From a virus (Duplodnaviria > Heunggongvirae > Uroviricota > Caudoviricetes): 31,209 nucleotides of DNA. The notes beneath the pieces are model-generated. The model saw nothing but the letters and a program-made list of their open reading frames with translations, was not told where the DNA came from and ran no database searches. A program made the position numbers and the translations under genes. Shown here piece by piece: positions 4,044 to 31,209 of the stretch; position 1 is the stretch's first letter, and the number at the start of each line of letters is the position of its first letter. The stretch covers positions 1-31,209 of the IMG/VR virus record IMGVR_UViG_3300029719_000311. One strand, given 5' to 3'.

Positions 4044-4099
4044 TTTGTTCTCCACGTATATGCGCTGCACCGCGCTGAATTCGGGTAAAAGGAAGCCCT

Positions 4100-5422: not shown

Positions 5423-5434
5423 CATAAACATTGA

Positions 5435-6109: not shown

Positions 6110-6123
6110 AACGAAATTAAAAC

Positions 6124-6194: not shown

Positions 6195-6199
6195 ATTGT

Positions 6200-6400: not shown

Positions 6401-6431
6401 CAGAACACTTTCAATTTTTAACCACAGAACG

Positions 6432-7330: not shown

Positions 7331-7339
7331 AGGTCGGTC

Positions 7340-9748: not shown

Positions 9749-10134
9749 AGCTGATCCTGCCTTTTCCGCCCAGCGTGAACACGTACTGGCGACACCCCAA
9801 CAAAGGGGCGTTTGCTGGTAAGAGCCTGATAAGCGCGGCGGGGCGAAAATTCCAGAGCGCGGCGTGCGCAGCAATAGTTGAGCAGTTACGTCGTCTGCCG
9901 AAACCAACGTCGGCACCTGCTTCAGTGGAGATCGTGTTGTTTCCTCCGGATAACCGGATCCGCGATCTGGACAACTATAACAAGGCGCTGTTTGACGCCC
10001 TGACCCACGCGGGTGTGTGGGAGGACGACAGTCAGGTGAAAAGAATGCTGGTGGAGTGGGGACCGGTTATCCCGGAAGGGAAGGTCGAGATCACTATCAG
10101 TAAGTACGAGAAAACGGCGGGTGCAGCCGCCTGA
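9745..10134 (+). CDS. rusA: Holliday junction resolvase RusA
   Basis: LPFPPSVNTYWRH..., ...RDLDNYNKALFDALTHAGVWEDDSQV... match RusA conserved blocks; ATGA coupling. Confidence 0.85.
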   Translation: MKLILPFPPSVNTYWRHPNKGAFAGKSLISAAGRKFQSAACAAIVEQLRRLPKPTSAPASVEIVLFPPDNRIRDLDNYNKALFDALTHAGVWEDDSQVKRMLVEWGPVIPEGKVEITISKYEKTAGAAA

Positions 10135-10153
10135 TCAAGAGGAGAAACGAAGT

Positions 10154-10951: not shown

Positions 10952-10952
10952 G

Positions 10953-12755: not shown

Positions 12756-12824
12756 AATTGTTATAACCCATATAAGGGCACCAGAAATGGTGCCTTTTTT
12801 ATTGCAGAAAAGCGAGAGGTAATT

Positions 12825-13424
12825 ATGCGTAAACTTTATGCCGCCATTTTGTCCGCAGCCATTTGTCTGGCCGTATCCGGTGCGCCTGCATGGGCATCTG
12901 AACATCAGTCCACGCTGAGCGCGGGGTATCTTCATGCCTTGACGAACGTTCCCGGCAGCGATGATCTTAACGGGATTAACGTGAAATACCGTTATGAGTT
13001 TACGGACACACTGGGGCTGGTGACGTCATTCAGCTATGCAGGAGACAAGAATCGCCAGCTTACCCGTTACAGCGATACCCGCTGGCATGAAGATTCAGTG
13101 CGTAACCGCTGGTTCAGCGTGATGGCGGGGCCGTCTGTGCGCGTGAATGAATGGTTCAGCGCGTATGCGATGGCGGGTATGGCTTACAGCCGTGTTTCGA
13201 CTTTCTCCGGGGATTATCTCCGCGTAACTGACAACAAGGGGAAAACGCACGACGTGCTGACCGGAAGTGATGACGGTCGCCACAGCAACACGTCTCTGGC
13301 GTGGGGGGCTGGCGTGCAGTTTAACCCGACCGAATCCGTGGCCATTGATATTGCTTATGAAGGCTCCGGCAGCGGTGACTGGCGTACCAACAGTTTCATC
13401 GTGGGTGTCGGTTATAAATTCTGA
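12825..13424 (+). CDS. lom: Lom/Ail family outer-membrane beta-barrel protein
   Basis: Signal peptide [24 protein letters not shown], alternating beta-strand pattern, C-terminal ...VGVGYKF; position between J and stf. Confidence 0.85.
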
Positions 13425-13488
13425 TTAGCCAGGTAACACAGTGTTATGACAGCCCGCCGGTTCAGGCGGGCTTTTTTGTGGGGGGAAT

Positions 13489-15903: not shown

Positions 15904-16487
15904 TGGTATTCAGAATGAGTGAACAACCACGGACCATAACAATTTATAATCTGCTGGCCGGAACTAATGAATTTATTGGTGAAGGTGATGCATATATTCC
16001 GCCTCATACAGGTCTGCCAGCAAACAGTACCGATATTGCACCGCCAGATATTCCGGCAGGCTTCGTGGCTGTTTTCAACAGTGATGAGGCATCGTGGCAT
16101 CTCGTTGAAGATCATCGGGGTAAAACGGTTTATGACGTGGCTTCCGGCGACGCGTTATTTATTTCTGAACTCGGTCCGTTACCGGAAAATGTTACCTGGT
16201 TATCGCCGGGAGGGGAATATCAGAAGTGGAACGGCACAGCCTGGGTGAAGGATACGGAAGCAGAAAAACTGTTCCGGATCCGGGAGGCGGAAGAAACAAA
16301 AAACAGCCTGATGCAGGTAGCCAGTGAGCATATAGCGCCGCTTCAGGATGCTGTAGATCTGGAGATCGCAACGGAGGAAGAAAACTCGTTGCTGGAAGCC
16401 TGGAAAAAGTATCGGGTGTTGCTGAACCGTGTTGATACATCAACTGCACCGGATATTGAGTGGCCTGCTGTCCCTGTTATGGAGTAA
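15903..16487 (+). CDS. tfa: Tail fibre assembly protein Tfa
   Basis: TAATG overlap with stf; ...[68 protein letters not shown]... typical Tfa N-terminal region. Confidence 0.8.
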
Positions 16488-17024: not shown

Positions 17025-20000
17025 ATGGAACCCATATCAATTACAGTGGCAACTTATGTAGCAACTAAACTTATTGATCAATTCATCTCTCAAGAAGGAT
17101 ATGGTTGTATTAAGAAAGCATTATTCCCCCAAAAAAGATATGTGGATAGATTATATCAACTAATTGAAGAGACGGCAATTGAGTTTGAAGAAACATATCC
17201 AGTAGAAAGTGGAGCAATACCATTTTATCATTCCGAACCATTGTTTGAGATGTTGAATGAGCACATCTTTTTTAAAGAGTTCCCTGACAAAGAGATATTA
17301 TTAGACAAGTTCAAAGAATATCCAAGTATCACTCCCCCAACTCAACAACAACTCAGCCTTTTTTATGAGATGTTATCATTAAAAATCAATAATTGTTCGA
17401 AGTTAAAAAAGCTACATATCGAAGAAACGTATAAAGAAAAAATATTCGATATTAATGAAGAGCTCATTCAAGTCAAACTTATTTTACGGTCTATAGATGA
17501 GAAACTAACTTTTCACTTAAGTGATGATTGGTTAAATGAAAAAAATAGTCAAGCAATAGCTGACTTGGGAGGTCGATACACACCCGAACTCAACGTAAAG
17601 CTAGAAATAGCAGAGATATTTGATGGCCTCGGTAGAACTAATGATTTTTCTAAAATATTTTATTCGCATATAGATAGCTTTCTGGTCGCTGGAAAGAAAT
17701 TACATAGTTGCGATGTAATTTCCTCAGAATTATTTGAAATAAACCAGTCCTTAAAAGAAATTTCTGATATATATCAGGAGATTAATTTTTCTAAATTAGA
17801 TGAAATCCCTATAAATAAATTTAATAACTATGTTTCTAGCTGCCAGACAGCTATTGGCGGAGCGGTATCAATATTGTGGGAACTCCGAGAAAAGTCAGAG
17901 CAAGTAGGTGAAACCAAGCATTACAGTGATAAGTATTCATCTACTCTGCGAATGCTTCGGGAATTTGACTATGCGTGCAATGAATTACGTATATTCATTA
18001 ATTCAACAACAGTGAAGTTGGCTAACAACCCATTCTTACTTCTCGAAGGAAAAGCAGGAATTGGTAAGTCTCATTTACTGGCTGATGTGATTAAAAATCG
18101 AATTGCTTCTGGGTATCCTTCACTACTCATACTAGGGCAACAACTTACTTCAGATGAATCTCCATGGTCACAAATCTTCAAGAGATTACAGCTTAAAATC
18201 ACTTCTCGTGAATTCCTAGAAAAACTGAATTTATATGGCAAAAAAACAGGAAAAAGAGTCTTAGTTTTTATTGATGCTATTAATGAAGGTAATGGAAATA
18301 AATTCTGGAATGACAATATTAACAGTTTTGTCGATGAAATCAGATGCTTTGAATGGCTTGGTCTGATAATGTCAGTCAGAACAACATATAGAAATGTAAC
18401 AATTTCACATGAGAATGTTGTGCGAAATAATTTTGAAATTCATGAACATATTGGATTCCAGAACGTTGAGTTGGAAGCGGTTAGTCTATTTTATGATTAT
18501 TACAATATTGAGAGGCCTTCATCTCCTAACCTTAATCCAGAGTTTAAAAATCCTCTATTTCTTAAGTTATTGTGTGAAGGCATTAAGAAAAATGGTTTAA
18601 CCAAAGTGCCTGTTGGATTTAATGGGATTTCAAATATTTTTAACTTTTTAGTTGAAGGGGTAAATAAATCATTAGCATCGCCAAGAAAATATGCATTCGA
18701 TCCCAGTTTTCCTCTTGTTAAAGATGCTCTCAATGAAATCATAAAATTCAAATTAGAGATTGGTCGTAATAGTATTTCACTTAAAGATGCTCACTCAGTG
18801 GTTCAATCTGTAGTTAATGATTATGTTGCTGATAAAACCTTCCTCAGCGCCTTGATTGACGAAGGATTATTGACTAAAGGCATAGTGAGAAATGATGATA
18901 ATTCTACTGAGGAAGTAGTTTATGTGGCTTTTGAAAGGTTTGATGATCATTTAACTGTTAATTTTTTATTAAATGATGTTGAAAATATCGAAAGTGAATT
19001 TAAGCCTGATGGTCGTCTGAAAAAATATTTTCATGATGAATGTGATTTTTATATAAAATCGGGAATAGTAGAGGCGTTGTCTATTCAATTGCCAGAAAGG
19101 TATGAAAAAGAGCTTTATGAATTTCTGCCGGAGTTCAGCAATAATCTTAAATTACTAGAAGCCTTTATTGATAGCTTGATATGGCGCGATATTAAGGCTA
19201 TTGATTTCGAAAAAATTAGACCTTTCATCAATGAACATGTTTTTAAATTTAAAGATAGTTTTGATCATTTCCTCGAGGCAGTGATCTCTATTTCAGGTTT
19301 AGTTGGCCATCCCTTTAATGCTAATTTCTTGCATGATTGGCTAAAAGATTATTCTTTGGCAAATCGAGATTCGTTTTGGACTACAGAACTTAAATATAAA
19401 TATAGTGAAGACTCAGCATTTAGGCATCTAATCGATTGGGCATGGGCCAGAACAGATAAAAGCTTTGTTTCGGATGAGTCAATCGAGCTAGTTGCAACTA
19501 GTTTATGCTGGTTTTTAACTTCTAGTAACCGAGAACTTCGAGATTGCTCAACTAAGGCTTTAGTGAGTTTACTCGAGCCAAGAATTCCTGTATTGAGAAA
19601 AATAATTGATAAGTTTTATGGTGTAAATGATCCTTACGTTTGGGAAAGAATATTTGCAGTTGCATTAGGCTGTACATTGCGAACTGATAATATTAAAGAA
19701 CTAAAATATTTAGCCGAAACTGTTTACCAAAAGGTATTTTGTTCTAAGTATGTGTATCCAAATATATTACTTAGAGATTATGCTAGAGAGATTATTGAAT
19801 TTGCTAATCATCTTGGATTGGAACTTGAAAGCATTGAATTATCCAAGACTAGACCACCCTACAACAGCATTTGGCCTGACAAGATTCCTTCAAAAGAGGA
19901 ACTAGAGTCCCTTTATGATAAAGAACCTTATCGGGAACTCTGGAGCTCTATTATGGAAGATGGTGACTTTTCACGATATACTATTGGAACAAATTATAAT

Positions 20001-21479
20001 CATTCTGATTGGTCTGGTTGCAAGTTTAATGAAACCCCTGTTGACCGTAAGCAAGTTTTTAAAACTTTCAAATGTAAACTAACTGATCAACAAAAAGACT
20101 TGTATGATGCCACAGATCCTTTCATTTATGATGATAAATGCGAAGGAATTAAATTTGGTCGTGTGGTCGGTAGAAAATCACAGGAAGAAATAAAGGCGAG
20201 CAAGAAATTATTTAAGAATTCATTGTCATACGATCTGTTAAGTGAGTTTGAAAATGAAATAGAGCCATACCTGGATCATAATAATAATCTGCTGGAAACT
20301 GATAAACACTTTGATCTTCGACTAGCTCAACAATTTATATTCAATCGTGTTATAGAGCTTGGTTGGGATCCGGAGAAGCATGGTAATTTTGACCAACAAA
20401 TAGGAACTGGACGTGGACGTAGAGAGGCATTCCAAGAACGGATTGGTAAAAAATACCAATGGATTGCTTATTATGAATACATGGCAAGGCTAGCCGATAA
20501 TTTTACTCGTTTTGAAGGTTATGGTGACGAACGAAAGGAAAATCCATACCAAGGGCCATGGGAGCCTTACGTAAGAGATATAGATCCCACTATCTTACTT
20601 AAAGAAACTGGAACGAAAAAAATAAGCAATAAAGAAATGTGGTGGCTTAATGATGAAGTGTTTGATTGGACTTGCTCTAATGAAGACTGGGTTAAAAGTT
20701 CTACTACTATAACTAATTCATATGCTTTTATTGAAGTTAAAGATGATAATGGTGATGAATGGATAGTATTAGAAAGTCATCCATCATGGAAAGAACCAAA
20801 AATTATTGGAAACGATGATTGGGGGCACCCACGAAAAGAGGTTTGGTATCAGATCAGAAGTTATATCGTTAAAGTTGAAGAATTTGAAAATTTTAGATGT
20901 TGGGCAATAGCTCAAGACTTTATGGGCAGGTGGATGCCGGAATGTACTGATAGATACCAATTATTTAATAGGGAGTACTATTGGTCCGAAGCATTTAAGT
21001 CTTTTAAATCAGATTATTATGGTGGATCTGACTGGACTTCGGTAACAGACCGGGAGTCTGGAGCTAAGATAGCTGATGTTAGTGTCACTTCGATTAATTA
21101 TTTGTGGGAAGAGGAGTTCGACAAATCAAAAATAGAAACTTTGAATTTTTTGAAGCCTAGTAACTTAATCTTTGAAAAGATGGGATTAAAAAGTGGGGAA
21201 GTAGAGGGTAGCTTCAATGATGAAAATGGAACTATGGTTTGCTTTGCAGCTGAAGCTGTATATGCTTCAAAGCCGCATCTACTTGTTAAAAAAGAACCAT
21301 TTTTAACAATGTTAAGGGACAATGGTTTTGAAATCGTTTGGACATTATTAGGTGAAAAGGGCGTTATAGGGGGCTCACTCATATCAAGTCATCATTATGG
21401 TCGACAGGAGTTTAGTGGAGCATTTTATTATGAAGACAGTCAGCTAACAGGAAGTCATAAAACTAGCTTTACGAGATAA
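17025..21479 (+). CDS. Large P-loop NTPase with NACHT/STAND-like motifs (1484 aa); candidate antiphage defence protein
   Basis: Walker A GKAGIGKS (18048..18071), Walker B VLVFIDAINEG (18258..18290), downstream IMSVRTT sensor-1-like motif; about 330-aa N-terminal and about 1050-aa C-terminal helical extensions; low GC versus neighbours; located between tfa and attR. Confidence 0.6.
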   Translation: MEPISITVATYVATKLIDQFISQEGYGCIKKALFPQKRYVDRLYQLIEETAIEFEETYPVESGAIPFYHSEPLFEMLNEHIFFKEFPDKEILLDKFKEYPSITPPTQQQLSLFYEMLSLKINNCSKLKKLHIEETYKEKIFDINEELIQVKLILRSIDEKLTFHLSDDWLNEKNSQAIADLGGRYTPELNVKLEIAEIFDGLGRTNDFSKIFYSHIDSFLVAGKKLHSCDVISSELFEINQSLKEISDIYQEINFSKLDEIPINKFNNYVSSCQTAIGGAVSILWELREKSEQVGETKHYSDKYSSTLRMLREFDYACNELRIFINSTTVKLANNPFLLLEGKAGIGKSHLLADVIKNRIASGYPSLLILGQQLTSDESPWSQIFKRLQLKITSREFLEKLNLYGKKTGKRVLVFIDAINEGNGNKFWNDNINSFVDEIRCFEWLGLIMSVRTTYRNVTISHENVVRNNFEIHEHIGFQNVELEAVSLFYDYYNIERPSSPNLNPEFKNPLFLKLLCEGIKKNGLTKVPVGFNGISNIFNFLVEGVNKSLASPRKYAFDPSFPLVKDALNEIIKFKLEIGRNSISLKDAHSVVQSVVNDYVADKTFLSALIDEGLLTKGIVRNDDNSTEEVVYVAFERFDDHLTVNFLLNDVENIESEFKPDGRLKKYFHDECDFYIKSGIVEALSIQLPERYEKELYEFLPEFSNNLKLLEAFIDSLIWRDIKAIDFEKIRPFINEHVFKFKDSFDHFLEAVISISGLVGHPFNANFLHDWLKDYSLANRDSFWTTELKYKYSEDSAFRHLIDWAWARTDKSFVSDESIELVATSLCWFLTSSNRELRDCSTKALVSLLEPRIPVLRKIIDKFYGVNDPYVWERIFAVALGCTLRTDNIKELKYLAETVYQKVFCSKYVYPNILLRDYAREIIEFANHLGLELESIELSKTRPPYNSIWPDKIPSKEELESLYDKEPYRELWSSIMEDGDFSRYTIGTNYNHSDWSGCKFNETPVDRKQVFKTFKCKLTDQQKDLYDATDPFIYDDKCEGIKFGRVVGRKSQEEIKASKKLFKNSLSYDLLSEFENEIEPYLDHNNNLLETDKHFDLRLAQQFIFNRVIELGWDPEKHGNFDQQIGTGRGRREAFQERIGKKYQWIAYYEYMARLADNFTRFEGYGDERKENPYQGPWEPYVRDIDPTILLKETGTKKISNKEMWWLNDEVFDWTCSNEDWVKSSTTITNSYAFIEVKDDNGDEWIVLESHPSWKEPKIIGNDDWGHPRKEVWYQIRSYIVKVEEFENFRCWAIAQDFMGRWMPECTDRYQLFNREYYWSEAFKSFKSDYYGGSDWTSVTDRESGAKIADVSVTSINYLWEEEFDKSKIETLNFLKPSNLIFEKMGLKSGEVEGSFNDENGTMVCFAAEAVYASKPHLLVKKEPFLTMLRDNGFEIVWTLLGEKGVIGGSLISSHHYGRQEFSGAFYYEDSQLTGSHKTSFTR

Positions 21480-21862
21480 AAATGAATCTCAGAGCTGAAT
21501 ATATAAGTAGTATTAGAAACCGGGTTATACTTAAGAAATCAATCTTAAGTGTGGCAGTCGAATGGTAGCTAATATGCTAGCGGCGCTAATGCCTGTTTGT
21601 TGCTCATAACAGGCATTCACTTTAGTTATGGCAGAAAAGTATACATGCTGGGTTGGGAAAGTGTGAAAGAAAGGAAGATTGCTGCGCCGTTTGTCGTCAC
21701 GTTTATCTTCATTGGCTATGCAAGTCGTAATAAAAGGTGGGACAAAACTGAGACACATAAAGCCTCGCAATGGCTTGCAAGGCTTTACATGTTTTGATGT
21801 GGTGGGACGTGTGAGCGCAGTGTTGATGGGGTAATGCTTTGAATTAGAAGCGGATTCTTATA

Positions 21863-21909
21863 ATTCGTAATGCGAAGGTCGTAGGTTCGACTCCTATTAT
21901 CGGCACCAT
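21863..21909. repeat. att core, right copy (attR of element 1 / attL of element 2)
   Basis: 47 bp identical to 1399..1445 (partial thrW 3' end ATTCGTAATGCGAAGGTCGTAGGTTCGACTCCTATTATCGGCACCAT). Confidence 0.9.
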
Positions 21910-22072
21910 CACCTAGTTTTCCCAAGTCAACCCACATCAACAAAATCATTTAAAAACATATATATTACGTTGTTTTCATACGTTTGAGGTCAACCCTTGT
22001 CTCTTGAAATCAACACGCGGTTGGGGGCACAATCAGGGGCATGTTCTGTTCGATCTAGGAAATGTGCCCCCA

Positions 22073-23263
22073 ATGATGCTGAATGCCCGCAAGGTTGAAG
22101 CTGCGAAAGGAAAAGAGAAGAGCTACAAGCTGTTTGATGGAGGTGGCCTATACCTTCAGGTCGAACCTAATGGCTCGCGTTACTGGCGTATGAAATACCG
22201 TTTTGCTGGTAAAGAGAAACGATTGTCCTTTGGTGTTTATCCAACAGTCACACTTGCTGATGCCAGACAAAAACGAGAAGACGCGAAGAAACTACTCGCA
22301 GCAGGTGAAGATCCCGGCGAAGTCAAAAAAGCCAAAAAGCAGGCTTTAAATGCAGCGAGTGAGACACTTAACCCATTCAGAGAAGTGGCGTTAGAGTGGC
22401 ACAAAATGAAATCACCCAAATGGTCTGAGGGCTATGCTTCCGACATCATTGAGGCATTCGAGAAAGACATTTTCCCGCATATTGGGCACAGACCTATAGC
22501 TGATATTCAGCCCCTTGAACTGCTTGAAGTTCTGAGGTTGATAGAAGCTCGAGGCGCTATGGAGAAAGCGAAGAAAGTCCGTCAGCGATGCGGTGAAGTT
22601 TTTCGCTATGCCATCGTAACGGGTAGGGCAATCTACAATCCGGCACCGGATCTTGCCAGTGCGATGCAAGGACATGAAGCAGTCCACTATCCATTCCTCA
22701 AAGCCAACGAACTACCGGAGTTCTTTAATGCCCTTAATTCTTATTCAGGAAGTCCAATTGTATTGTTGGGGGCGCATTTACTTATCCTGACAGGTCTACG
22801 AACTGGAGAACTACGAGCAGGTGAGTGGCGAGAGGTGGATTTTGATAATGCGGTGTGGGAGATCCCAAAAGAACGTATGAAAATGCGTAGGAGCCATATT
22901 GTCCCGTTGTCAAAACAAGCATTATCCCATCTCAAAAGTTTGAAAGAACTAACTGGGAACTACCCGCTGATGTTCCCTGGACGCAACGATCCCAGCAAAT
23001 TTATGAGTGAAGCAAGCATTAATCAGGTGTTTAAACGTATTGGATATGCAGGGCGTGTTACGGGGCATGGTTTCAGGCATACGATGAGTACAATCCTACA
23101 TGAGAAAGGATTTAACAGCGCTTGGATTGAAACCCAGCTTGCTCATTCGGACAAAAACTCTATTCGTGGAATTTATAACCATGCCCAATATCTCGAAGGG
23201 AGAAGAGAAATGATGCAATGGTATGCTAATTATTTATCTGAGCAAATTGGTACTCATAAATGA
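22073..23263 (+). CDS. Tyrosine integrase, P4-type
   Basis: ...KEKSYKLFDGGGLYLQVEPNGSRYWRMKYRFAGKEKRLSFGVYPTVTLADARQKREDAKKLL... N-terminal arm-binding pattern of P4-family integrases; C-terminal ...GHGFRHTMSTILHE... catalytic region; true start probably ATG at 22073/22076 rather than ORF start 22004. Confidence 0.9.
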   Translation: MMLNARKVEAAKGKEKSYKLFDGGGLYLQVEPNGSRYWRMKYRFAGKEKRLSFGVYPTVTLADARQKREDAKKLLAAGEDPGEVKKAKKQALNAASETLNPFREVALEWHKMKSPKWSEGYASDIIEAFEKDIFPHIGHRPIADIQPLELLEVLRLIEARGAMEKAKKVRQRCGEVFRYAIVTGRAIYNPAPDLASAMQGHEAVHYPFLKANELPEFFNALNSYSGSPIVLLGAHLLILTGLRTGELRAGEWREVDFDNAVWEIPKERMKMRRSHIVPLSKQALSHLKSLKELTGNYPLMFPGRNDPSKFMSEASINQVFKRIGYAGRVTGHGFRHTMSTILHEKGFNSAWIETQLAHSDKNSIRGIYNHAQYLEGRREMMQWYANYLSEQIGTHK

Positions 23264-24084
23264 ATATTTTAAAAATTAATAATACTGATTCTCTGCTCAG
23301 AGATTACTACCAGTTGGATGAAGCTTCAGAAAAAATTGGTTGTAGTGAAAAGGATATACTCTGGTTTGCCAGAGAACGAGATGTAGAGCTATGCATGGAA
23401 TTCCATGATGATGAGTATGATGTTTCATGTGGTTTGAAGATTGATGGTCAAATAGATGAGTTCTTATCTAATCTGAAATATTTACCACGAGATAGAAATG
23501 GCAATATTATGTTGTCAGACTTAAGTTCTATAAGAATCCCTGATGAAGATAATTTAATTGATAAAAATGGTTTTATTCGATGCTTCATATCCGGTTTATG
23601 GGCTGTTGATTATGAATATAAAGATCTGTTAGTTAAGCATGAGGGGCAACCGGATTCCTGGCCTATTCATTTTCTACTGGCGGGTACGCCTAATATAAAT
23701 TGTAAGGTAATTCTTTATGTAAATTATGATGAAAAAGAAAATTATTATCTTTTTGAGGTTTTGTGGATTACAAAGGTACAGATTCAAAAATTCATTGATA
23801 TAGTCTTATGCGAACAAAAGCGGATAAAAAACGCCAATAAATATAAATCACAATCTGAGGCGCAAAAACAAAAACATGCTGTTCCTCGAGCTGAAATACT
23901 CATGGCTATTATTTCGCTCTATCATCGTGATATGAGGCTAAGAAGAGAGAGTCCAGCAGCGATAGCTGATTATCTTTTTCAACATGCCAGTGAGTTCTGG
24001 CCTAAGACCGGAGAACCGCCTTTGAGCTATGATACTGTTGTTAGTTTGCTACGTAGTTGCATGAAAAACATTAAGTTTAACTAA
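23260..24084 (+). CDS. Hypothetical low-GC cargo protein (274 aa), translationally coupled to integrase
   Basis: ATGA overlap with int stop; strongly AT-rich relative to int; no recognisable motifs. Confidence 0.5.
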   Translation: MNILKINNTDSLLRDYYQLDEASEKIGCSEKDILWFARERDVELCMEFHDDEYDVSCGLKIDGQIDEFLSNLKYLPRDRNGNIMLSDLSSIRIPDEDNLIDKNGFIRCFISGLWAVDYEYKDLLVKHEGQPDSWPIHFLLAGTPNINCKVILYVNYDEKENYYLFEVLWITKVQIQKFIDIVLCEQKRIKNANKYKSQSEAQKQKHAVPRAEILMAIISLYHRDMRLRRESPAAIADYLFQHASEFWPKTGEPPLSYDTVVSLLRSCMKNIKFN

Positions 24085-24209
24085 ATATTAACAATTGTTG
24101 TGGCTAATGATTTTGAATTTTTTTCATTAGTCACATTTTTCTCATTTATAACCTATGTTTTAATTTTCCGTGTTGAAGCCAATAGACTTAGATAAACGGA
24201 GAATGATGA

Positions 24210-24500
24210 ATGTTATCTAAACATGATAATACTACTTTGCAACGACCTTCAATGGATTCTCTGATCGATATGAAGTTTATTACTTCCGATTGTTTATTAA
24301 GTGATAAATGGATTTATCGATTGATTTCTCTGAATCGCTTTCCAAAACCTATAAAAATAGGTCGGATGTCACGATGGCGCGCTGCTGATTATTATAAGTG
24401 GCGAGATGGGTTTGAAGAAAACTCAGGTCAACAGTTTGAGGGGATGAGAAATAAGGCAAGAGCAATTAATAAAGGGAATAGATTATCACCTACTCCCTAA
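24210..24500 (+). CDS. AlpA-family phage regulatory protein (Vis/excisionase-like)
   Basis: ...LISLNRFPKPIKIGRMSRWRAADYYKWRDGF... fits the AlpA pattern (FPKP.K.G..S.W); GGAGA RBS 8 nt upstream. Confidence 0.55.
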   Translation: MLSKHDNTTLQRPSMDSLIDMKFITSDCLLSDKWIYRLISLNRFPKPIKIGRMSRWRAADYYKWRDGFEENSGQQFEGMRNKARAINKGNRLSPTP

Positions 24501-24706
24501 GCCTTAATTGATAGTTAGTAATATTTAACTGATTAGCCTTTAGGGTCAATCCCGCGTGATTGGAGTTCTTTGCGTAAAATTCTTTTAATCCAAGTTGCCA
24601 ACGCGCTATCTCCATCTTTGCGCATTTCGTTTTCGAGTTGCAACCTAAAATCGTCGGTAAGACGCATTTGGAATGGTGGAGAACGTTTCTCTTGTGGTGT
24701 TGACAT
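24491..24706 (-). CDS. Putative Arc/Mnt-like ribbon-helix-helix regulator (71 aa); not in the supplied ORF track
   Basis: Hand-translated minus-strand ORF MSTPQEKRSPPFQMRLTDDFRLQLENEMRKDGDSALATWIKRILRKEL...; PPFQMRLTDD resembles the Arc N-terminal beta-strand; start codon lies within one of two GGTAATTACC palindromes. Confidence 0.4.
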
Positions 24707-24746
24707 GGTAATTACCCTAGAATATGATGACTACATGGTAATTACC
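24707..24746. promoter_or_regulatory. Two 10-bp palindromes GGTAATTACC spaced 30 bp apart (candidate operators)
   Basis: CATGGTAATTACC repeated at 24704..24716 and 24734..24746, overlapping the RHH gene start. Confidence 0.4.
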
Positions 24747-24837
24747 ATTGTAAGTATAGTTCGCTTGTAAAAGCAATGCCCGATTGTGCGGGAACACAAA
24801 TCGGGCATTTAACCAACCGTTATAAGAGGTAACGAAG

Positions 24838-25014
24838 ATGGCTAAACAGAAGTGTACCTGGTTATTTGCGGCGATCAACCGCAGTCAACGCAATGCCCGT
24901 CCTGTGATGTTAAGGATCACCGCAGATAACGAGCGGTCAGCGCGGCGCAGACTTGCCCCGGACTATGTACTGAGCTTTGCCGGGCGCATTCCCTGCGGAG
25001 GTGAACATGCGTAA
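24838..25014 (+). CDS. Small protein (58 aa), Icd-like position in a P4-like element
   Basis: Hand-translated MAKQKCTWLFAAINRSQRNARPVMLRITADNERSARRRLAPDYVLSFAGRIPCGGEHA; AAGAGG RBS; overlaps the next gene start by 8 nt. Confidence 0.4.
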   Translation: MAKQKCTWLFAAINRSQRNARPVMLRITADNERSARRRLAPDYVLSFAGRIPCGGEHA

Positions 25015-25366
25015 TTATCCGCATCCCGGCGAACGCTGGCAGCATGAACGTGGCTGGACGGTCACGATTATCCGATTAATAGAAGCCTCGCCCTCTGTGG
25101 CGCTGGTTAATCCTGAATTCAGCTGTGAAGTGCTGATACGTCATGACAGCGACAACCAGCTTTCTTCCTGCCCTCTGGCATGGTTTGAACAGCGATATAC
25201 GCGCCTGTTTGATGTACCGCTCTTTAAGCCTGCACCAGCTCCTGCAGGCGGTAGTGGTTCCGGCCCGCTGACACTGCATCCGTCTGTGCTATTTATCCGC
25301 TGGCGGGAGCGTAGCATATGGCGTTCTGCTGAGCCTGATGACGGTCACTATTCAAAGTTTCTCTGA
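25007..25366 (+). CDS. Hypothetical protein (119 aa)
   Basis: ATG preceded by GGAGG at 6-nt spacing; GC-rich; function unknown. Confidence 0.45.
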   Translation: MRNYPHPGERWQHERGWTVTIIRLIEASPSVALVNPEFSCEVLIRHDSDNQLSSCPLAWFEQRYTRLFDVPLFKPAPAPAGGSGSGPLTLHPSVLFIRWRERSIWRSAEPDDGHYSKFL

Positions 25367-25602
25367 CACAATACCGCTGAAAACGGAGTAATCCACGATG
25401 AATATTTCAAACGGGCACAACGGTGCTCAGGGCCACACTTTGCCTGAAAAACACAATACCTGCTGCCCTCCACTGATGGCAAACTCCAGACAACCATTCG
25501 CCCGCCAGAGATGAATCCCCGCAGGCTCTATGTCTTCAACAGCGAGGTGCCGGGTTAAGGCTTTGCGTGAGTCTTATTTATTAAGGGTAACAGGTGAAAC
25601 AG

Positions 25603-25780
25603 GTGGAACAACCGTATTTTACAGGGCTGAACCTGTTCCACCTTCTGAAATAGTGAGGTGGAACAGATGTAACGCCAGCCAATCCGCTGTTCCACCTTGT
25701 TACCCGCGATGTTTCACCGGTGCAGTGTATATAAATGTCTTATAAAACAAAGCTGTAACACATGTTTCACCTGTTCCACC
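25603..25780. repeat. Iteron cluster TGTT(C/T)CACC in both orientations (P4 ori/crr-like)
   Basis: About 8 copies (25603, 25612, 25633, 25657, 25688, 25710, 25763, 25772) flanking an AT-rich core; P4 ori/crr use TGTTCACC octamers bound by the alpha primase. Confidence 0.55.
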
Positions 25781-25868
25781 GCATCAGGGACATAAAGCAG
25801 ACTGAAACAGAGGGCATTTTTATCTGGCTGGCTTTCATAGCCACGTCTGAATAACCGCAAGCGCCCGT

Positions 25869-25924
25869 TGTGCCAGCCACCACACACTGAACACCGATAG
25901 TGTGCTTGTGTCAGCCACGACACA
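25869..25924 (+). promoter_or_regulatory. Candidate Ogr/Delta-activated late promoter (two TGT-N12-ACA dyads)
   Basis: TGTGCCAGCCACCACACA at 25869..25886 and TGTGTCAGCCACGACACA at 25907..25924, 35-90 bp upstream of the sid-like ATG. Confidence 0.4.
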
Positions 25925-25958
25925 ATTGACGTAACGAACCAACCCGACAGGAGAAGTC

Positions 25959-26702
25959 ATGAACAATACCGCAGTAAATAACAACCTTTCCACTTTTCCG
26001 GCTGTAACGCAGCGGGCACTGGAAACCATGAACACAGCCAGAAACGCATGGCTTGAAGCACGTCGTCAGCAGAAAGCGGCAGCGGATAATATTGCGACAA
26101 TCCGCCAGCGTCGCGCTGAAATGGAAGCCACGACGAACACACTGAATGAGGAGTGGCGCACGCTGTTTCGTGAAAGTCAGGGCGTGGTCTCAAAGGAAAT
26201 GAAAAAACTGCGCACGGAAATTGCGCTGGGACGAGAAACGCTTGAGGATTTTGATGAGCTGCTGGCGGCTCAGGAAAGCGAAAATGCACTTTTGCCGCAG
26301 AAAGCTGCAGAATTAGCCGGAAAGTATATCCACGCGCATAACATTCTTGTGGATATTCGCGCAAAACAAATCTGGGAGGATTTTATGCAGTCGCATGGAA
26401 AAGCGCTTATTCAGACGCTGAGCCTGCTTAAATCCACAATGGGCCGGGAAGCCAGTGCCGTTGTGGGTGTGGTGAATTCAGTTAATGACCCGGACACAGT
26501 GCTGAAAGACTTTATTCATAAACATATCACCAGACCGGCTCTGGCTAACGATGCGATGCCTGAGCAGGACCCGGTGTTTAAACTGGCGGGAGTTGCCCCG
26601 GATTATGCGGCGCGTCTGGATTTCAGTAATCAACTCTCTCCGGCAGCTATGCATAAAATTAAGGTTCGTCAGGAACTTGCTGAGAAGGAGAAAGCAGTAT
26701 GA
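25959..26702 (+). CDS. Sid-like capsid size determination protein (247 aa)
   Basis: Helical 247-aa protein (P4 Sid is 244 aa), first gene of the operon ending in an ogr/delta gene; AGGAG RBS. Confidence 0.5.
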   Translation: MNNTAVNNNLSTFPAVTQRALETMNTARNAWLEARRQQKAAADNIATIRQRRAEMEATTNTLNEEWRTLFRESQGVVSKEMKKLRTEIALGRETLEDFDELLAAQESENALLPQKAAELAGKYIHAHNILVDIRAKQIWEDFMQSHGKALIQTLSLLKSTMGREASAVVGVVNSVNDPDTVLKDFIHKHITRPALANDAMPEQDPVFKLAGVAPDYAARLDFSNQLSPAAMHKIKVRQELAEKEKAV

Positions 26703-27250
26703 CGGCCCGAGGCACGCCTGACCAGGCACTTACCAGTTTTCGGAATGCCCGCATTCTGTGGGCCGGACATAATGAGAGCCGAAAAGCCGTTGAACAACAG
26801 ATAACATCTCTCCTCGCTGCCACAGAAAAACCAGCAGATTATGCCCGACAGCTCGAATTACTGCGGGAACGTCTGGATGTGCTGAAATGGCAAATTAACT
26901 GTGCTGCGCGCGAATGCATTTACTCGCAGCATTTACTGATGGAGGCCTGCACAGAAGCCGCTCTCAGCAATTTTATGCAGGCGAATGGGGCAGCCCTGAC
27001 ATCTGCACTGGCTCCGTTCCTGAAGGGGCGCGGAGGGGTTGACGTTGCGTCCCGTATATTACGCAGTGCTCTGGTTCGCCAGCTGGCAATAACACCGCCT
27101 GAAATTGCTGGGGATTATCGTGAGATCCTGGATGAATCCGGTTTGATGCCTGACCCCGGGATGATTCGTGATTGCCAGGGTTCTTACACCCCGGCACAAC
27201 ATCTGCGTTTTCAGCAACGCCTGAATGACATTAACGATATACAGGAGTGA
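26699..27250 (+). CDS. Psu-like polarity suppression protein (183 aa)
   Basis: ATGA coupling to sid-like gene; size and operon position match P4 psu (190 aa). Confidence 0.5.
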   Translation: MTARGTPDQALTSFRNARILWAGHNESRKAVEQQITSLLAATEKPADYARQLELLRERLDVLKWQINCAARECIYSQHLLMEACTEAALSNFMQANGAALTSALAPFLKGRGGVDVASRILRSALVRQLAITPPEIAGDYREILDESGLMPDPGMIRDCQGSYTPAQHLRFQQRLNDINDIQE

Positions 27251-27255
27251 TATTA

Positions 27256-27528
27256 ATGGCACTTAAATGTCCGGAATGCGGTACAGTTGCACACGCCAGA
27301 ACAGCAGCCTATGAAGCTCCGTCAGTTAAACGCTCGTGGTATCAGTGCCAGAATCTGGAATGTTCCTGCACATTTACGGCACTGGAGAGTGTGGATAAGA
27401 TAATCATGAAACCCCGGCGCAATGAACAGGAACCAGACAAATCACAACCCCCGGTAAAACAACAGCAAACGCTCAATCGCTATGGCTCCGCGTCAAAACT
27501 GTCAAGCCGTCAGCAGATTCCTGTCTGA
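27256..27528 (+). CDS. Ogr/Delta-family zinc-finger late transcription activator
   Basis: MALKCPECGTVAHARTAAYEAPSVKRSWYQCQNLECSCTFTALESV matches the Ogr pattern C-P-x-C-x4-HART...Y-x-C-Q-N-x-x-C-S-x-T-F; start at ATG after AGGAG rather than track GTG at 27247. Confidence 0.85.
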   Translation: MALKCPECGTVAHARTAAYEAPSVKRSWYQCQNLECSCTFTALESVDKIIMKPRRNEQEPDKSQPPVKQQQTLNRYGSASKLSSRQQIPV

Positions 27529-27549
27529 TTAGAAAAAAACGCCCACGTA

Positions 27550-27575
27550 ATCCCGGTCGAGTACCGGGATTTTTA
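27550..27575 (+). terminator. Rho-independent terminator after the delta gene
   Basis: ATCCCGGT-CGAGT-ACCGGGAT hairpin followed by TTTT. Confidence 0.6.
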
Positions 27576-27863
27576 ACACCTTTTCCCTGGCTGGCCTGAG
27601 AGCGTATGAGTGCATGTCTATGGCGCATGAAAATGCATGAGTCTTATGCACCCTTTTTGAGGCGAAAACCTTTGTGTGGTGGTATCTGAGACGATTTATG
27701 GCATGCATGAAAACCAGTCTGTTAAGCGAAGCGGGCAGGCGTGCGGGGCTGCCCGCGTAAGGGCGTTGAATGGTATAACTATGGCACGGTTACCGCATGT
27801 TTTGAGCTGTAATCGAAGTTATGAAAATTACTATATAAAGCGGTCGCTGTTGTGGAGATACGA

Positions 27864-27892
27864 TTGCGGGAAGTGATGGAAAGAGCTATAAA
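27864..27892 (+). promoter_or_regulatory. Candidate sigma70 promoter for the RT operon
   Basis: TTGCGG-N17-TATAAA about 30 bp upstream of the RT1 ATG. Confidence 0.3.
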
Positions 27893-27922
27893 AAGTACAG
27901 AGGATAGTTTAATGAGGGTATT

Positions 27923-29200
27923 ATGAACCGTCAGCCGTTTACTTCAGCAGCACTTAAACGAAACTTAAGTGAAAGTGAGAAGGCTTATTATTTTAAAAAA
28001 AATAATGTTGCTGAGTTAGAATCATTAATTAGTGATGCCGTTTTAATTGCTAATGAGAATTTTCGCTCTGGTGTGAGTGTAAAGAAACTAAATATTAAGG
28101 GACGCTGCGTTTACACTGCTTCATGTTTGAAGGAAAAAATAATACTTAGACATTGCAATGCAAATTTAAAATGCCTTGAATCGCTTCGTCCCAAACAACG
28201 AAATACAATAATTAGTGAGCTTAAAATTTATTTGGAAGAAGGTACTCCATTCAAAATATATCGTTTGGATATAAAGTCTTTCTTTGAATCAATTGATTTA
28301 CCGCAGCTTTTTCAGCTCTTACATAACGAAACACGACTGTCTAGACATACAAAAAATTTGCTAGAATGGTATCTTAAATCGTGTGAAAGGCTTCACTCTT
28401 CGAAAGGATTACCTAGAGGGTTAGAAATTAGTCCTATGTTATCAGAATTGTACTTGGCACAATTTGATAATAGTATTCATAGGCATCCAGAAGTATTTTA
28501 TTATTCAAGATTTGTAGATGATATGGTAATCGTTTCAAGTGGTTGTGAATGTGAAGCGTCCTTTATGGAATTTATACAAGATGTATTACCAAAGGGATTG
28601 GCTTTAAATAAAAATAAATTAAAAATATCTCCATGCATACCAAAGAGAAGTAAGGGTTTAAATAAACAGGATAAATTGCTTCATGAATTTGACTTTCTAG
28701 GGTACTCGTTTTCTATAATAGACACACCTTTGAGCAAAGATGGTGAGATTAATAGCTGTTACAGAAAGGTTGTTGTTAATTTATCTAAATCTCGCCTGAA
28801 GAAAATTAAAACAAGAATAGCTAGGTCTTTCTACTCTTATCATATTAATGGTGATTTTAAACTATTGCTAGACAGGATTTCTTTTTTGACTAGTAACAGG
28901 GATTTAAATCGCAAAATAAAATCGTTAAGTTCTTTAGAAAAAAGCAAGATAAGTACAGGTATTTATTACAGTAATGCGAAGTTAGATGTTGACTCCATAT
29001 CCCTAAAAAAATTAGATGACTTTTTGCTATATTGTGTGCAATCTAATACTGGGCGTTTGAATAGTGTTGCAAAAAAACCTTTTAATTTGAAGCAAAAAAA
29101 AGAACTGCTAAGAAATAGTTTTAGAAAAGGCTTTGTGGATAGAGTATATAGAAAGTATAACTTTAAGCGCTATACTGAGATTACAAAAATATGGTTATAA
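27923..29200 (+). CDS. Reverse transcriptase 1 (425 aa), defence-associated RT (UG/Abi-like; DRT3 component by inference)
   Basis: Canonical RT motifs: YRLDIKSFFESID (motif 2), LPRGLEISPMLSELYL (motif 4), FVDD catalytic box at 28511..28522 (motif 5), FDFLGYSF (motif 7); very low GC. Confidence 0.85.
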   Translation: MNRQPFTSAALKRNLSESEKAYYFKKNNVAELESLISDAVLIANENFRSGVSVKKLNIKGRCVYTASCLKEKIILRHCNANLKCLESLRPKQRNTIISELKIYLEEGTPFKIYRLDIKSFFESIDLPQLFQLLHNETRLSRHTKNLLEWYLKSCERLHSSKGLPRGLEISPMLSELYLAQFDNSIHRHPEVFYYSRFVDDMVIVSSGCECEASFMEFIQDVLPKGLALNKNKLKISPCIPKRSKGLNKQDKLLHEFDFLGYSFSIIDTPLSKDGEINSCYRKVVVNLSKSRLKKIKTRIARSFYSYHINGDFKLLLDRISFLTSNRDLNRKIKSLSSLEKSKISTGIYYSNAKLDVDSISLKKLDDFLLYCVQSNTGRLNSVAKKPFNLKQKKELLRNSFRKGFVDRVYRKYNFKRYTEITKIWL

Positions 29201-31209
29201 AGAAAAACATTAAACTTGATAAGAAAGATTATCTCAGGGCTTTACTATGTGATACACTGCCCGGTGATTGTCCAATTATTTTTTCAAATGATGGCTTATA
29301 TATAAACTTAACAGAATATGATAGAGTTTGTAATGATTTGTTACATTTTACTCCGGTTTCTTCTTTCTTAAAAAAAATAGTTAACCCTAATTTAGACTCT
29401 TCTATTAGTGTCGCAGATCGCCACCGAGAAAAGAAGAAACAAAGCTCCCCATTTGGCTATTGTATAGTAAAAGATGCCTTTAGCCAAAGACATCTTTCTT
29501 TAATTCACCCAAGATCTCAAATTAATTATTCGGAATTTTATAAAACATACTCATCCGTTATCACATTAAATACTTTAAAAAGTAATTTTTCTATTCGCTA
29601 CCCACGTAAGGTCGCTAACTCTTTCTTTTTATATGAAAATAATGCTTTGGAAAAATATAAAGGGGAAGATATCGAAACAACAAAGGATGAGTTAATGAGG
29701 AAATATTCATCCTCTTATTTTAGTTATGGCGGTTTCAACAGGATATATAAACTATTTCAAAGTAAGATGTTTATTGAGCTTGAGAAAAGATTCTCGGTGA
29801 TGTGGATGTTAGATGTATCACATTGTTTTGATAGCATATATACGCATTCGGTTTCTTGGGCATTAAAAAATAAATCATATATCAAAAAACATGTTAAACA
29901 CAGCAATCAATTTGGACAAGAATTAGATACACTGATGCAACGTAGCAATAATAATGAAACAAATGGAATACCTATTGGTTCAGAGTTTAGCAGGGTTTTT
30001 GCAGAATTAATATTTCAGCGAATTGATTGCAATATTGAGTCATGCCTTCTTAGTGAGCATGGATGGGTTAATAATAAAGATTATGTTATATTGAGATATG
30101 TAGATGATTTTATTGTTTTTTGTAATGGTGAGTCAAGTGCCGAAGTTATTACAAAAATAATTAATGTGAAGTTAAATGAATATAATCTACAATTAAATGT
30201 AAACAAGCTTAAGAAGTATTCTAGGCCATTTTGCACTAGCAAGACAAGTTTGATTGTCAAAGTTAATGAATTAATTCGCAATTTAGAAATTAAACTGTAT
30301 GAAAAACGTGATAGTGGCTTTACTTTAAATAAAATAAGAAGTAAGCATGATTTAAAGATATATGTAATTAATCATGTCAAGTCTATATGCATTGAAAATC
30401 AAGTGTCTTATTCTGATGTTTCATCATATATAATATCATCTCTTTCCAAAAGATTAATATCAATAATTGATATATTACGAGTTCAAGAAAATGAAGATGA
30501 TGTAGATGTAAAAAAAAGGATTAAGGACTTAATTTTCACAATAACCGATATTATGTTGTTCTTTTTCAGTGTTAACCCAACTGTTTCATCATCTTATAAA
30601 TTATCAAAAACAATGGTTGTTGTTAATAACTATTTGAATGAAATATCTAGTGACTATAGTAGTATTTTTATGACTACGTTAGTGAATGCTGCGGAAAACA
30701 TTAATTTTGGTGAGAATGATAATGGGCTGTTTATTGATGATTTCATTTCAATTGAAAAGGTTAATTTAATCTTGGCTGCTACTTTTTTTGGAGATAATTA
30801 TCTTATAAGTGACAGTTTTTTTCATGGAGTTATACATAAAAAGAAATTGGACTACTTTACTATAATCTCACTGCTATTCTATTTTAGAAACAGAAGATCA
30901 TTCCGAAAATTGAAGTGTATAATAGAGGGTGAAATAAAGGAAATATTAAGTTCTAATATGGATTTGCTGCAATCATCGGAAAAGGCACATTTATTTTTGG
31001 ATGTCATGTCATGTCCATTTGTCTCAATAGAGACAAGGCGTTTTTTATATAGAAAATATCTCAAGAGCTATGAGCCAAAGCTGAACAGAAGTCATCTGGA
31101 GATTGAGAATGATTTGCAATCTCTGCTTCAAATATATTGGTTTGTCAAGTGGGATGAGTTAGATATTGTGAAAATGATTGAGAAAAAAGAATTGAAAGAA
31201 AGCTATTAA
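29191..31209 (+). CDS. Reverse transcriptase 2 (672 aa) with long C-terminal extension (UG/Abi-like; DRT3 component by inference)
   Basis: MLDVSHCFDSIYTHSVSWAL (motif 2), NGIPIGSEFSRVFAELIF (motif 4), YVDD catalytic box at 30097..30108; overlaps RT1 by 10 nt; stop codon is the last triplet of the window. Confidence 0.85.
   Translation: MVIKKNIKLDKKDYLRALLCDTLPGDCPIIFSNDGLYINLTEYDRVCNDLLHFTPVSSFLKKIVNPNLDSSISVADRHREKKKQSSPFGYCIVKDAFSQRHLSLIHPRSQINYSEFYKTYSSVITLNTLKSNFSIRYPRKVANSFFLYENNALEKYKGEDIETTKDELMRKYSSSYFSYGGFNRIYKLFQSKMFIELEKRFSVMWMLDVSHCFDSIYTHSVSWALKNKSYIKKHVKHSNQFGQELDTLMQRSNNNETNGIPIGSEFSRVFAELIFQRIDCNIESCLLSEHGWVNNKDYVILRYVDDFIVFCNGESSAEVITKIINVKLNEYNLQLNVNKLKKYSRPFCTSKTSLIVKVNELIRNLEIKLYEKRDSGFTLNKIRSKHDLKIYVINHVKSICIENQVSYSDVSSYIISSLSKRLISIIDILRVQENEDDVDVKKRIKDLIFTITDIMLFFFSVNPTVSSSYKLSKTMVVVNNYLNEISSDYSSIFMTTLVNAAENINFGENDNGLFIDDFISIEKVNLILAATFFGDNYLISDSFFHGVIHKKKLDYFTIISLLFYFRNRRSFRKLKCIIEGEIKEILSSNMDLLQSSEKAHLFLDVMSCPFVSIETRRFLYRKYLKSYEPKLNRSHLEIENDLQSLLQIYWFVKWDELDIVKMIEKKELKESY

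Follow-up and report, generated by a model that had tools for sequence, protein, structure and literature searches.

A DRT type 3 reverse transcriptase pair carried as cargo by a P4-like satellite at thrW in Escherichia coli

Our analysis of a 31,209-nucleotide stretch of Caudoviricetes DNA (hereafter, the window) focused on the two reverse transcriptases (RTs) encoded at its 3' end, Drt3a and Drt3b. Together with a downstream noncoding RNA (ncRNA), drt3a and drt3b very probably (probability ~0.92) form a DRT type 3 anti-phage system that is complete, looks functional, and works by the mechanism published for its homologs. The drt3 module is cargo in a variable hotspot of a P4-like E. coli satellite integrated at thrW. 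The locus is an already known system and not a new kind: RefSeq labels the pair drt3a/drt3b in 22 complete E. coli genomes, database entries identical to the two proteins bear the NCBI names Drt3a and Drt3b, and both the structures and the mechanism of the family appeared in print in 2026. Annotation of the two genes is now safe, and another ~420 bp past the window end, containing the ncRNA and attR (at approximately +393 to +416), are needed to complete the system.

As the preliminary description had it, the two RT genes are tandem, co-oriented, and overlapping, and the window stops at the stop codon of the second RT, the last base of that codon being the last base of the window. The features of the module are as follows:

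27775..27922, + strand: drt3 cargo 5' leader, placed from the GC profile and from the backbone sharing, which stops near 27757-27774
27923..29200, + strand: drt3a, ATG start, 425 aa, class 2 (UG3) reverse transcriptase, from the ORF list
29191..29200, + strand: drt3a/drt3b overlap of 10 nt, from the ORF coordinates
29191..31209, + strand: drt3b, ATG start, 672 aa, class 1 (UG8) protein-primed reverse transcriptase, from the ORF list

The 10-nt overlap between the drt3a stop and the drt3b start suggests translational coupling, and the same overlap was found in two diverged E. coli variants. In 76 of 77 loci, drt3b directly follows drt3a in the same orientation, and at most junctions the two genes are estimated to overlap slightly (mode, -10). 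The module is also as AT-rich as had been claimed, with GC of 0.27-0.32 over 28001-31000 (~30%) versus 0.48-0.52 over 24501-28000 (~50% in the flanks), and ORFs of this length (425 and 672 aa), both intact, are not a product of chance in DNA of 30% GC. A promoter scan 5' of drt3a revealed none above chance.

The assignment to DRT type 3 (UG3 plus UG8), originally proposed from protein size and gene order, is borne out by PADLOC, NCBIfam, and PDB matches, which all agree. Drt3a matched the PADLOC Drt3a profile (6e-131) and the NCBIfam equivalog NF041747 (361.6 bits; cut-off, 200), both over residues 1-424, and its best PDB match was the solved Drt3a chain 9z6y_A (E 5e-56 over residues 13-424); the RefSeq product name of WP_001471072.1 is 'antiviral reverse transcriptase Drt3a'. 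Drt3b, whose sequence is that of NCBI protein cluster P0001 (100% identity), matched the PADLOC Drt3b profile over its full length (2e-203) and the NCBIfam equivalog NF041748 over residues 16-672 (613 bits; cut-off, 350). Its best PDB match was the solved Drt3b chain 9z6y_H (E 1e-112 over residues 3-672), and EcoDRT3b (26cz_A) matched with E 1e-78. Both RTs exceeded the Pfam RVT_1 gathering score of 29.6, with 61.3 bits for Drt3a and 53.9 bits for Drt3b. A profile check against the UG classes, which the preliminary description had suggested, ranked the Drt3a and Drt3b models best, with the next-best PADLOC classes far behind (UG17, 100.9 bits, for Drt3a; Drt6, 138 bits, for Drt3b). In addition, the profile and PDB chain matches revealed that the C-terminal half of Drt3b is alpha-repeat, as in the Drt3b family.

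Both catalytic boxes reported earlier, FVDD in the first RT and YVDD in the second, are intact. In the Drt3a translation, YYSRFVDDMVIV places FVDD at aa 197-200, motif A being D116 and motif C F197-V-D199-D200. Residues D116, D199, and D200 are conserved among 116 Drt3a homologs, and the first residue of motif C is mostly F (87 homologs) and otherwise Y (29), making FVDD the majority state. In the Drt3b translation, LRYVDDFIVF places YVDD at aa 303-306. We mapped the Drt3b residues by explicit alignment onto EcoDRT3b (26cz_A, SUMO offset 108), which gave the following correspondence, with the EcoDRT3b residue in parentheses: D26 (E22), R100 (R71), catalytic D208 (D182), F213 (F187), R268 (R241), YVDD 303-306 (276-279), and C-terminal Y672 (priming Y666). 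As judged from this alignment, all published essential Drt3b residues are kept (D182, F187, R71, R241, YVDD, and Y666 are all matched), and the gate residue E22 is represented by Asp26, a natural variant. The mapped residues, D26 included, do not vary among 28 homologs with identities of 40-90%.

The closest solved relatives of the window Drt3a and Drt3b are those of the DRT3 complex 9z6y/9z6z, which probably belongs to Deng et al. 2026. Both 9z6y and the window have the two genes in the same order, and in each the Drt3b protein has Tyr as its last residue, a YVDD box, and an alpha-repeat C-terminal half. However, 9z6y Drt3b is only ~55% identical to the window Drt3b (as read from the alignment) and has Glu at positions 21 and 26, where the window Drt3b has Asp; the latter is also longer by ~20 residues in the region between positions 45 and 80. 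EcoDRT3 (DRT3b structure, 26cz) is reportedly the system of Gao et al. from 2020. It has the same three parts as the locus studied here, with the ncRNA 3' of drt3b and an ACACAC template. EcoDRT3b is ~35-40% identical to the window Drt3b, as estimated from bit scores alone, and the two systems differ at the Drt3b gate, in the Drt3a box (YVDD in EcoDRT3 versus FVDD in the window), and in the ncRNA, which at the window locus is 245 nt long and carries an insertion absent from most homologs. Among more distant systems, DRT10/UG17 (the second-best PADLOC class for Drt3a) likewise copies a short ncRNA-loop template repeatedly, in a telomerase-like synthesis of tandem repeats, but it combines a single RT with a SLATT effector, has no second template-free RT, and scores far under the Drt3a model. 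AbiK, DRT4, and DRT6, the next-best classes for Drt3b, are class 1, protein-primed, untemplated RTs that resemble it in forming a hexamer, in tyrosine priming, and in having an alpha-repeat domain that replaces the thumb (PMC13174585). They act alone and make random or unconstrained ssDNA, whereas Drt3b has Drt3a as its partner and its product is a defined dinucleotide repeat.

DRT3 defence needs both RTs. Its mechanism has been described by Wang et al. 2026 (PMC13174585), and a review (PMC13314766) summarizes the finding of Deng et al. 2026 that DRT3 is a 6:6:6 complex with the ncRNA. For the present locus, we infer all four steps by homology, from experiments on homologs of ~35-55% identity. 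Drt3a would bind the cis-encoded ncRNA and copy its 5'-ACACAC-3' loop repeatedly, in a telomerase-like manner, into poly(dTdG). The Drt3b hexamer would use the hydroxyl group of Y672, the C-terminal tyrosine, as its primer and synthesize poly(dCdA) with no nucleic-acid template, and side chains beside the active site (Asp26, R100, and R268) would enforce the A/C alternation. The two strands would then anneal into a poly(GT/AC) duplex whose synthesis is constitutive and whose level host RecBCD keeps low. Upon inhibition of RecBCD by a phage (e.g., by lambda Gam), the duplex would accumulate and lead to growth arrest or abortive infection. What sets DRT3 apart is that Drt3b picks nucleotides by protein side chains and not by a template strand.

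The ncRNA was expected to lie 3' of the window, and this proved to be the case. In E. coli MLI105, which is the probable source genome (NZ_CP116929.1, where the sequence 3' of the window lies below position 3478403 on the minus strand), and in identical loci, the RNA begins 18 nt beyond position 31209; the identity of MLI105 continues over 410 nt after the window end. The RNA is 245 nt long and extends from +18 to +262 after the drt3b stop, with its 5'-ACACAC-3' template at +235. A search of the window itself revealed no motif match at ≤3 mismatches and no covariance model (CM) match better than E = 0.11. Extension of the sequence in the 3' direction and a search for a structured ncRNA, both advised in the preliminary description, uncovered a conserved closing helix, a stable fold, and a targeted CM match. 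Specifically, ACACAC occurs ≤600 nt 3' of drt3b in 60 of 63 loci, compared with ~0.15 per locus by chance; the template and its flanks are strictly conserved across downstream regions, and the 17-mer ACACACCTGATGTTGAG is identical in the E. coli locus and in distant genera. The 12-bp closing helix is found in the same register in all 16 loci compared, with 93.9% of cells paired versus 37-47% when the register is slid and at most 64% after shuffling, and compensatory changes were observed at 11 of its 12 pairs. These pair statistics were computed in Python, MAFFT having put gaps into the gapless mini-alignment.

Further analysis was carried out on an E. coli locus, L001, in which positions 15826-16076 (251 nt, containing the 245-nt RNA) fold at -88.3 kcal/mol (z = -7.1). 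A CM trained solely on non-enterobacterial homologs gave a full-length match at L001 15823-16071 in a targeted, filters-off search (E ~8e-4 within the pre-specified 600 nt), whereas with default filters over 494 kb it missed L001 and found only near relatives of the training set, with L075 at E = 0.22. RNAalifold, applied to three E. coli variants that differ too little to define internal helices, predicted base pairing for part of the template, at odds with the loop that has been published. The Rfam search of the module and downstream region revealed no family, the sole match being a chance snoRNA (E = 0.48), and hence no curated DRT3 ncRNA family is available. Among E. coli variants, the ncRNA is 93% and 79% identical, while dS at synonymous sites is 0.26-0.34 and 1.4-2.3. 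Its length is 245 nt in E. coli, compared with 171 nt for Siccibacter and 130-175 nt for the majority of the others, an insertion of ~75-98 nt being specific to the E. coli clade; because of this insertion, MAFFT misplaced the E. coli 5' part in an alignment of 16 downstream regions. Within the inserted segment, 5' of the template, an 11-bp hairpin (at about +165) followed by a U-run resembles an intrinsic terminator.

The surroundings of the module had been described as a P4-like satellite. This holds for the integrase, sid-like, psu, and delta genes and for the thrW att site, but the alpha primase of the core set has been lost in this copy. The satellite features in the window are as follows:

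21862-21908, + strand: attL at the left end of the satellite, 47 bp identical to the thrW 3' end; window 1399-1445 matches L001 3291-3337 exactly, the latter corresponding to window 21862-21908
22004-23263, + strand: tyrosine integrase (PF22022, PF13356, PF00589)
25456..25460, no strand: junction of a 3.17-kb deletion; lost are the alpha primase (TOPRIM/DUF927) and two small genes
25959-26702, + strand: Sid-like gene (PHROG Psu-like, 8.7e-93; RefSeq annotation)
26699-27250, + strand: psu (Pfam Psu, 1e-44)
27247-27528, + strand: Ogr/Delta zinc-finger activator (Pfam Ogr_Delta, 7.5e-16)

A 394-nt spacer separates the Ogr/Delta gene from drt3a, in keeping with the reported placement of the RT pair after the sid-psu-delta operon. 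An AlpA-like match in the satellite reached 20.6 bits (cut-off, 21). Window 21602-25460 corresponds to L001 3031-6888 and window 25456-31209 to L001 10057-15810, and the alpha primase is intact in L001. The deletion junction was found in 1 of 5426 complete E. coli genomes, that of strain MLI105. Since the alpha primase is deleted, the element is a degraded satellite member and not a complete satellite. An imperfect copy of the thrW end is located at L001 16203-16226, where the core chromosome common to 3777 genomes starts. A query for the P2/P4 cos sequence gave no match at ≤3 mismatches.

We considered three other readings of the locus. That the RTs represent a retron, a group II intron, or a duplicated single-RT Abi/UG system (AbiK, DRT4/6, or DRT10) has next to no probability. 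The two proteins do show sub-threshold matches to group II, retron, UG17, Drt4, Drt6, and AbiK models through the shared RT palm core. However, the matches cover the RT core only and fall far under the curated cut-offs (71.7 and 43.3 bits for group II model TIGR04416 against a cut-off of 300, and 50.7 bits for the retron St85 RT model against 235), whereas the Drt3a and Drt3b models span both proteins end to end with 3-6 times the rival scores. The Rfam search revealed no group II intron or msr/msd RNA, no tRNA or Rfam family was found in the RT region, and the ORF list contains no maturase, endonuclease, or retron effector gene; the absence of group II intron and retron features, noted at the outset, thus stands. 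Retrons, group II introns, and other UG classes are ruled out for both RTs by the profile scores. It is also very improbable, if less so, that the module is an inactive remnant, that is, decaying RT cargo in a satellite without primase that is unable to replicate. The loss of the alpha primase, with a junction unique to one genome, and the terminator-like hairpin upstream of the template would fit such decay. Nevertheless, both RT ORFs are full length and 100% identical to copies in primase-bearing satellites, the essential RT residues are all kept, and with a dN/dS of 0.05-0.16 between E. coli variants, drt3a and drt3b are under purifying selection. Moreover, the ncRNA is intact in MLI105, and defence cargo has no need of satellite replication.

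The third reading has a somewhat better, though still slim, chance. It holds that the locus is a DRT3-fold system with modified output or regulation, in which the Asp gate and the 245-nt ncRNA alter product composition or fidelity (e.g., more poly-dC) or make the template RNA conditional via the hairpin. Indeed, Asp26 is invariant in 28 of 28 Drt3b homologs, the E22D mutant of EcoDRT3b retains poly(dCdA) synthesis only partly (PMC13174585), and the ncRNA insertion is clade specific. Yet a considerable share of natural Drt3b homologs is reported to have Asp here (PMC13174585), R100, R268, and Y672 are unchanged, and the conservation of the ACACAC template and its flanks implies that the strand needed from Drt3b is still poly(CA). 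We favor a DRT type 3 system with the published mechanism, and it is improbable that the Asp-gate Drt3b clade and the E. coli-specific 245-nt ncRNA constitute a functional DRT3 sub-type. If they did, the fidelity or yield of product synthesis might be different in this sub-type, or its template RNA might be made only upon conditional read-through, and the window allele is a ready natural test case for both the Glu-to-Asp gate variant and the enlarged ncRNA.

The drt3 cargo is placed as in the P4 psu-int hotspot, i.e., between sid-psu-delta and, in the circular form, the att site plus integrase. A further 822 E. coli records share only window 27400 to ~27757-27774 with the locus and then diverge, and the variable hotspot cargo has its left boundary at about 27757-27775, coincident with a drop in GC. 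According to the searched part of Rousset et al. 2022 (PMC9122126), each P4-like satellite carries a different defence system in this hotspot, and that part mentions a UG5-nitrilase RT system and retrons but not DRT3. An Avs2 gene was also noted upstream.

The two reverse transcriptase (RT) genes at the end of the window form a DRT3 locus of a kind that is already known and annotated in RefSeq. They are arranged as follows:

27923-29200, + strand: drt3a, intact ORF of 425 aa
29191-31209, + strand: drt3b, intact ORF of 672 aa; the last base of its stop codon is the last base of the window

The ORF listing of the window places these genes in the same orientation with a 10-nt overlap, and Pfam detects an RT palm domain above the gathering score in each product. 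In the translations, FVDD occupies aa 197-200 of Drt3a and YVDD aa 303-306 of Drt3b. GC content is 0.27-0.32 over the pair versus ~0.50 in the 3 kb before it, and a Sid-like gene, psu, and an Ogr/Delta gene lie immediately 5'. The preliminary description of these ORFs, their catalytic boxes, overlap, AT-richness, and place after sid-psu-delta was accurate throughout, and its DRT type 3 call also proved right. PADLOC returned the Drt3a class at 6e-131 (residues 1-424) and the Drt3b class at 2e-203 (residues 4-672), with the runner-up classes, UG17 (101 bits) and Drt6 (138 bits), both far behind; in this profile comparison with other RT classes, of the kind that had been proposed, Drt3a and Drt3b came out best by a wide margin. 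The NCBI equivalog models scored 361.6 bits for Drt3a (cut-off 200) and 613 bits for Drt3b (cut-off 350). The top solved-structure matches were chains of the Drt3a-Drt3b complex 9z6y/9z6z (5e-56 and 1e-112, respectively). A further Drt3b match (1e-78), the SUMO-fused RT 26cz_A, is identified by its residue numbering as the 667-aa published homolog EcoDRT3b. Group II intron and retron models scored far below their cut-offs, on the shared RT core alone, and these identities were rejected.

Drt3b already has a 100% identical counterpart among the NCBI protein clusters. Among complete E. coli genomes, the module DNA occurs at ≥99.7% identity in 15, at 90.6% in 3, and at 78.5% in 3; every copy bears the RefSeq label drt3a/drt3b, and an Ogr/Delta gene always precedes it (15 + 3 + 3 genomes). 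One more genome, H19, matches 80% of the query at 99.8%, with the Ogr/Delta part outside the match.

EcoDRT3b is a hexamer that primes DNA synthesis from Y666, enforces alternating dA/dC addition through E22, R71, and R241 beside the active site, and coordinates metal through D182 and YVDD 276-279 (Wang et al. 2026, PMC13174585). Window Drt3b was aligned explicitly to 26cz_A (offset 108), which gave these equivalents:

E22: D26
R71: R100
D182: D208
F187: F213
R241: R268
YVDD 276-279: 303-306
Y666: Y672, the last residue

All of the mapped residues, D26 included, are invariant in 28 aligned homologs of 40-90% identity. The sole departure from EcoDRT3b is Asp for Glu at the E22 position (the gate); Asp is frequent there among homologs in nature, and EcoDRT3b carrying E22D keeps partial activity (PMC13174585). 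In Drt3a, D116, D199, and D200 are conserved across 116 homologs, and FVDD is the majority state of the box (F in 87, Y in 29). Neither FVDD nor the Asp gate is a defect; both belong to the normal variation of the family.

DRT3 requires an ncRNA 3' of drt3b, in which a 5'-ACACAC-3' loop templates poly(dTdG) (PMC13174585). The template motif was not found anywhere in the window with up to 3 mismatches allowed, and a covariance-model search of the window gave no match better than E = 0.11. The window does not contain the whole DRT3 system: the ncRNA and attR fall in the next ~420 bp. As the preliminary description had noted, the window ends at the drt3b stop and any downstream ncRNA is out of sight; it is present beyond that point in E. 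coli MLI105. For 410 nt past the window end, MLI105 is identical to L001, an E. coli locus with the same module in a primase-bearing satellite (own coordinates), and both have ACACAC at +235. This motif occurs ≤600 nt 3' of drt3b in 60 of 63 DRT3 loci from many phyla (chance ~0.15 per locus), and its context CACACACCTGATGYTGAG, which E. coli matches exactly, is conserved in the subgroup of ≥38% identity. A 12-bp closing helix pairs sequence just 3' of this motif with a 5' arm close to the stop codon. The helix keeps the same register in 16/16 loci, and an AATATTRCT-like motif always follows it; 93.9% of cells are paired, whereas slid registers reach 37-47% and shuffles at most 64%, and compensatory changes occur at 11 of the 12 pairs.

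L001 15828-16072: E. coli DRT3 ncRNA, 245 nt

The enclosing 251 nt (L001 15826-16076) fold at -88.3 kcal/mol (z = -7.1). The covariance model, trained on non-enterobacterial homologs only, missed the E. coli ncRNA when the search was broad and the filters were at default. With filters off and only the 600 nt 3' of drt3b searched, it gave a full-length match (L001 15823-16071; 16.9 bits, E ~8e-4, the model's E-values being rough), with an insertion of 98 nt, specific to E. coli, assigned to a hairpin loop. The ncRNA is 93% and 79% identical between E. coli variants, whereas synonymous sites of the adjacent genes have dS of 0.26-0.34 and 1.4-2.3; the ncRNA is therefore under constraint.

The E. 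coli-type ncRNA contains an 11-bp hairpin, ACCAAAGCCUA/UAGGCUUUGG, with AUUUU behind it (L001 15951-15977, ~+141 to +167 past the window end); it lies upstream of the ACACAC template and resembles an intrinsic terminator. This hairpin is part of the insertion absent from most homologs, and L076, the 78.5% variant locus, has a different, shorter one instead. There is a modest possibility that yield, fidelity, or regulation is changed by the Asp gate, normal as it is for the family, and by the enlargement of the ncRNA, including its terminator-like internal hairpin. Homology between L001 and L076 stops right behind the ncRNA 3' arm, which suggests that the mobile cargo, too, ends at the ncRNA 3' end. 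From ~5736 in L076, where window-type homology is gone, tandem CCCATGCTT units directly follow that arm; they may be a cargo boundary or a recombination scar.

The module lies in one of two tandem integrated elements behind thrW, each with copies of the thrW 3' end at its boundaries:

window start: proA, then thrW (tRNA-Thr CGU) at 1369-1444
1459-16487: defective lambdoid prophage remnant
1459-2622, minus strand: prophage integrase
further prophage genes: S24 repressor, CII-like, KilA-N, 600-aa DUF968/J-tip fusion, Lom, tail fibre, tail-fibre assembly (Tfa)
17025-21479, + strand: Avs2 (antiviral STAND NTPase), 1484 aa, GC ~0.33
21862-21908: exact 47-bp copy of the thrW 3' end, attL
23260-24084, + strand: unannotated 274-aa ORF, GC ~0.35, overlapping the integrase stop codon
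satellite gene order: integrase, 274-aa ORF, AlpA-like regulator, Icd-like, Sid-like, psu, delta; then DRT3

An imperfect thrW copy beyond the window (L001 16203-16226) is attR, where core chromosome common to 3777 genomes starts. The satellite backbone is shared with 822 other E. coli satellites up to ~27757-27774 and then diverges, and the DRT3 cargo lies where Rousset et al. (2022, PMC9122126) describe the psu-int hotspot of P4-like satellites. The earlier view of a P4-like satellite holds, with the qualification that the alpha primase was lost in a 3.17-kb deletion relative to L001 (junction 25456-25460, missing L001 6889-10056). The deleted stretch encodes the alpha primase (TOPRIM/DUF927), a DUF5375 gene, and a small ORF; the window satellite is therefore degraded and primase-less. 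Of 5426 complete E. coli genomes, that of MLI105 (NZ_CP116929.1) is the only one with this junction, which makes this strain the probable source of the window.

The main rival explanation, that the module is a dead remnant in this decaying satellite, is unlikely: intact satellites carry identical copies of it, and selection acts on it (purifying on both drt3a and drt3b, dN/dS 0.05-0.16). What the sequence shows is the DRT3 parts list, namely intact genes under selection, essential residues, and an ncRNA with its template. We infer the chemistry and trigger from homologs: Drt3a with the ncRNA would make poly(dTdG), Drt3b would make poly(dCdA) in a protein-primed and protein-templated reaction, and the strands would anneal. 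RecBCD would hold this duplex low until phage Gam or RecBCD loss frees it, leading to growth arrest. GreA is also required for DRT3 defence (PMC13174585; PMC13314766).

The Avs2 ORF, matched nearly full length by PADLOC (1752 bits) and without a Pfam match, occupies the distal end of the neighbouring prophage, just before the satellite attL, so the thrW island carries two defence cargos (Avs2 and DRT3). The prophage ORFs scanned included no head or replication genes. The 274-aa ORF, inside the satellite and across att from the known hotspot, has no match in Pfam, PADLOC, or PHROGs. In addition, Rfam IS009 (RF02111) matches 16246-16444 (+) at 222.7 bits versus a gathering score of 117, overlapping the 3' end of the tail-fibre assembly gene.
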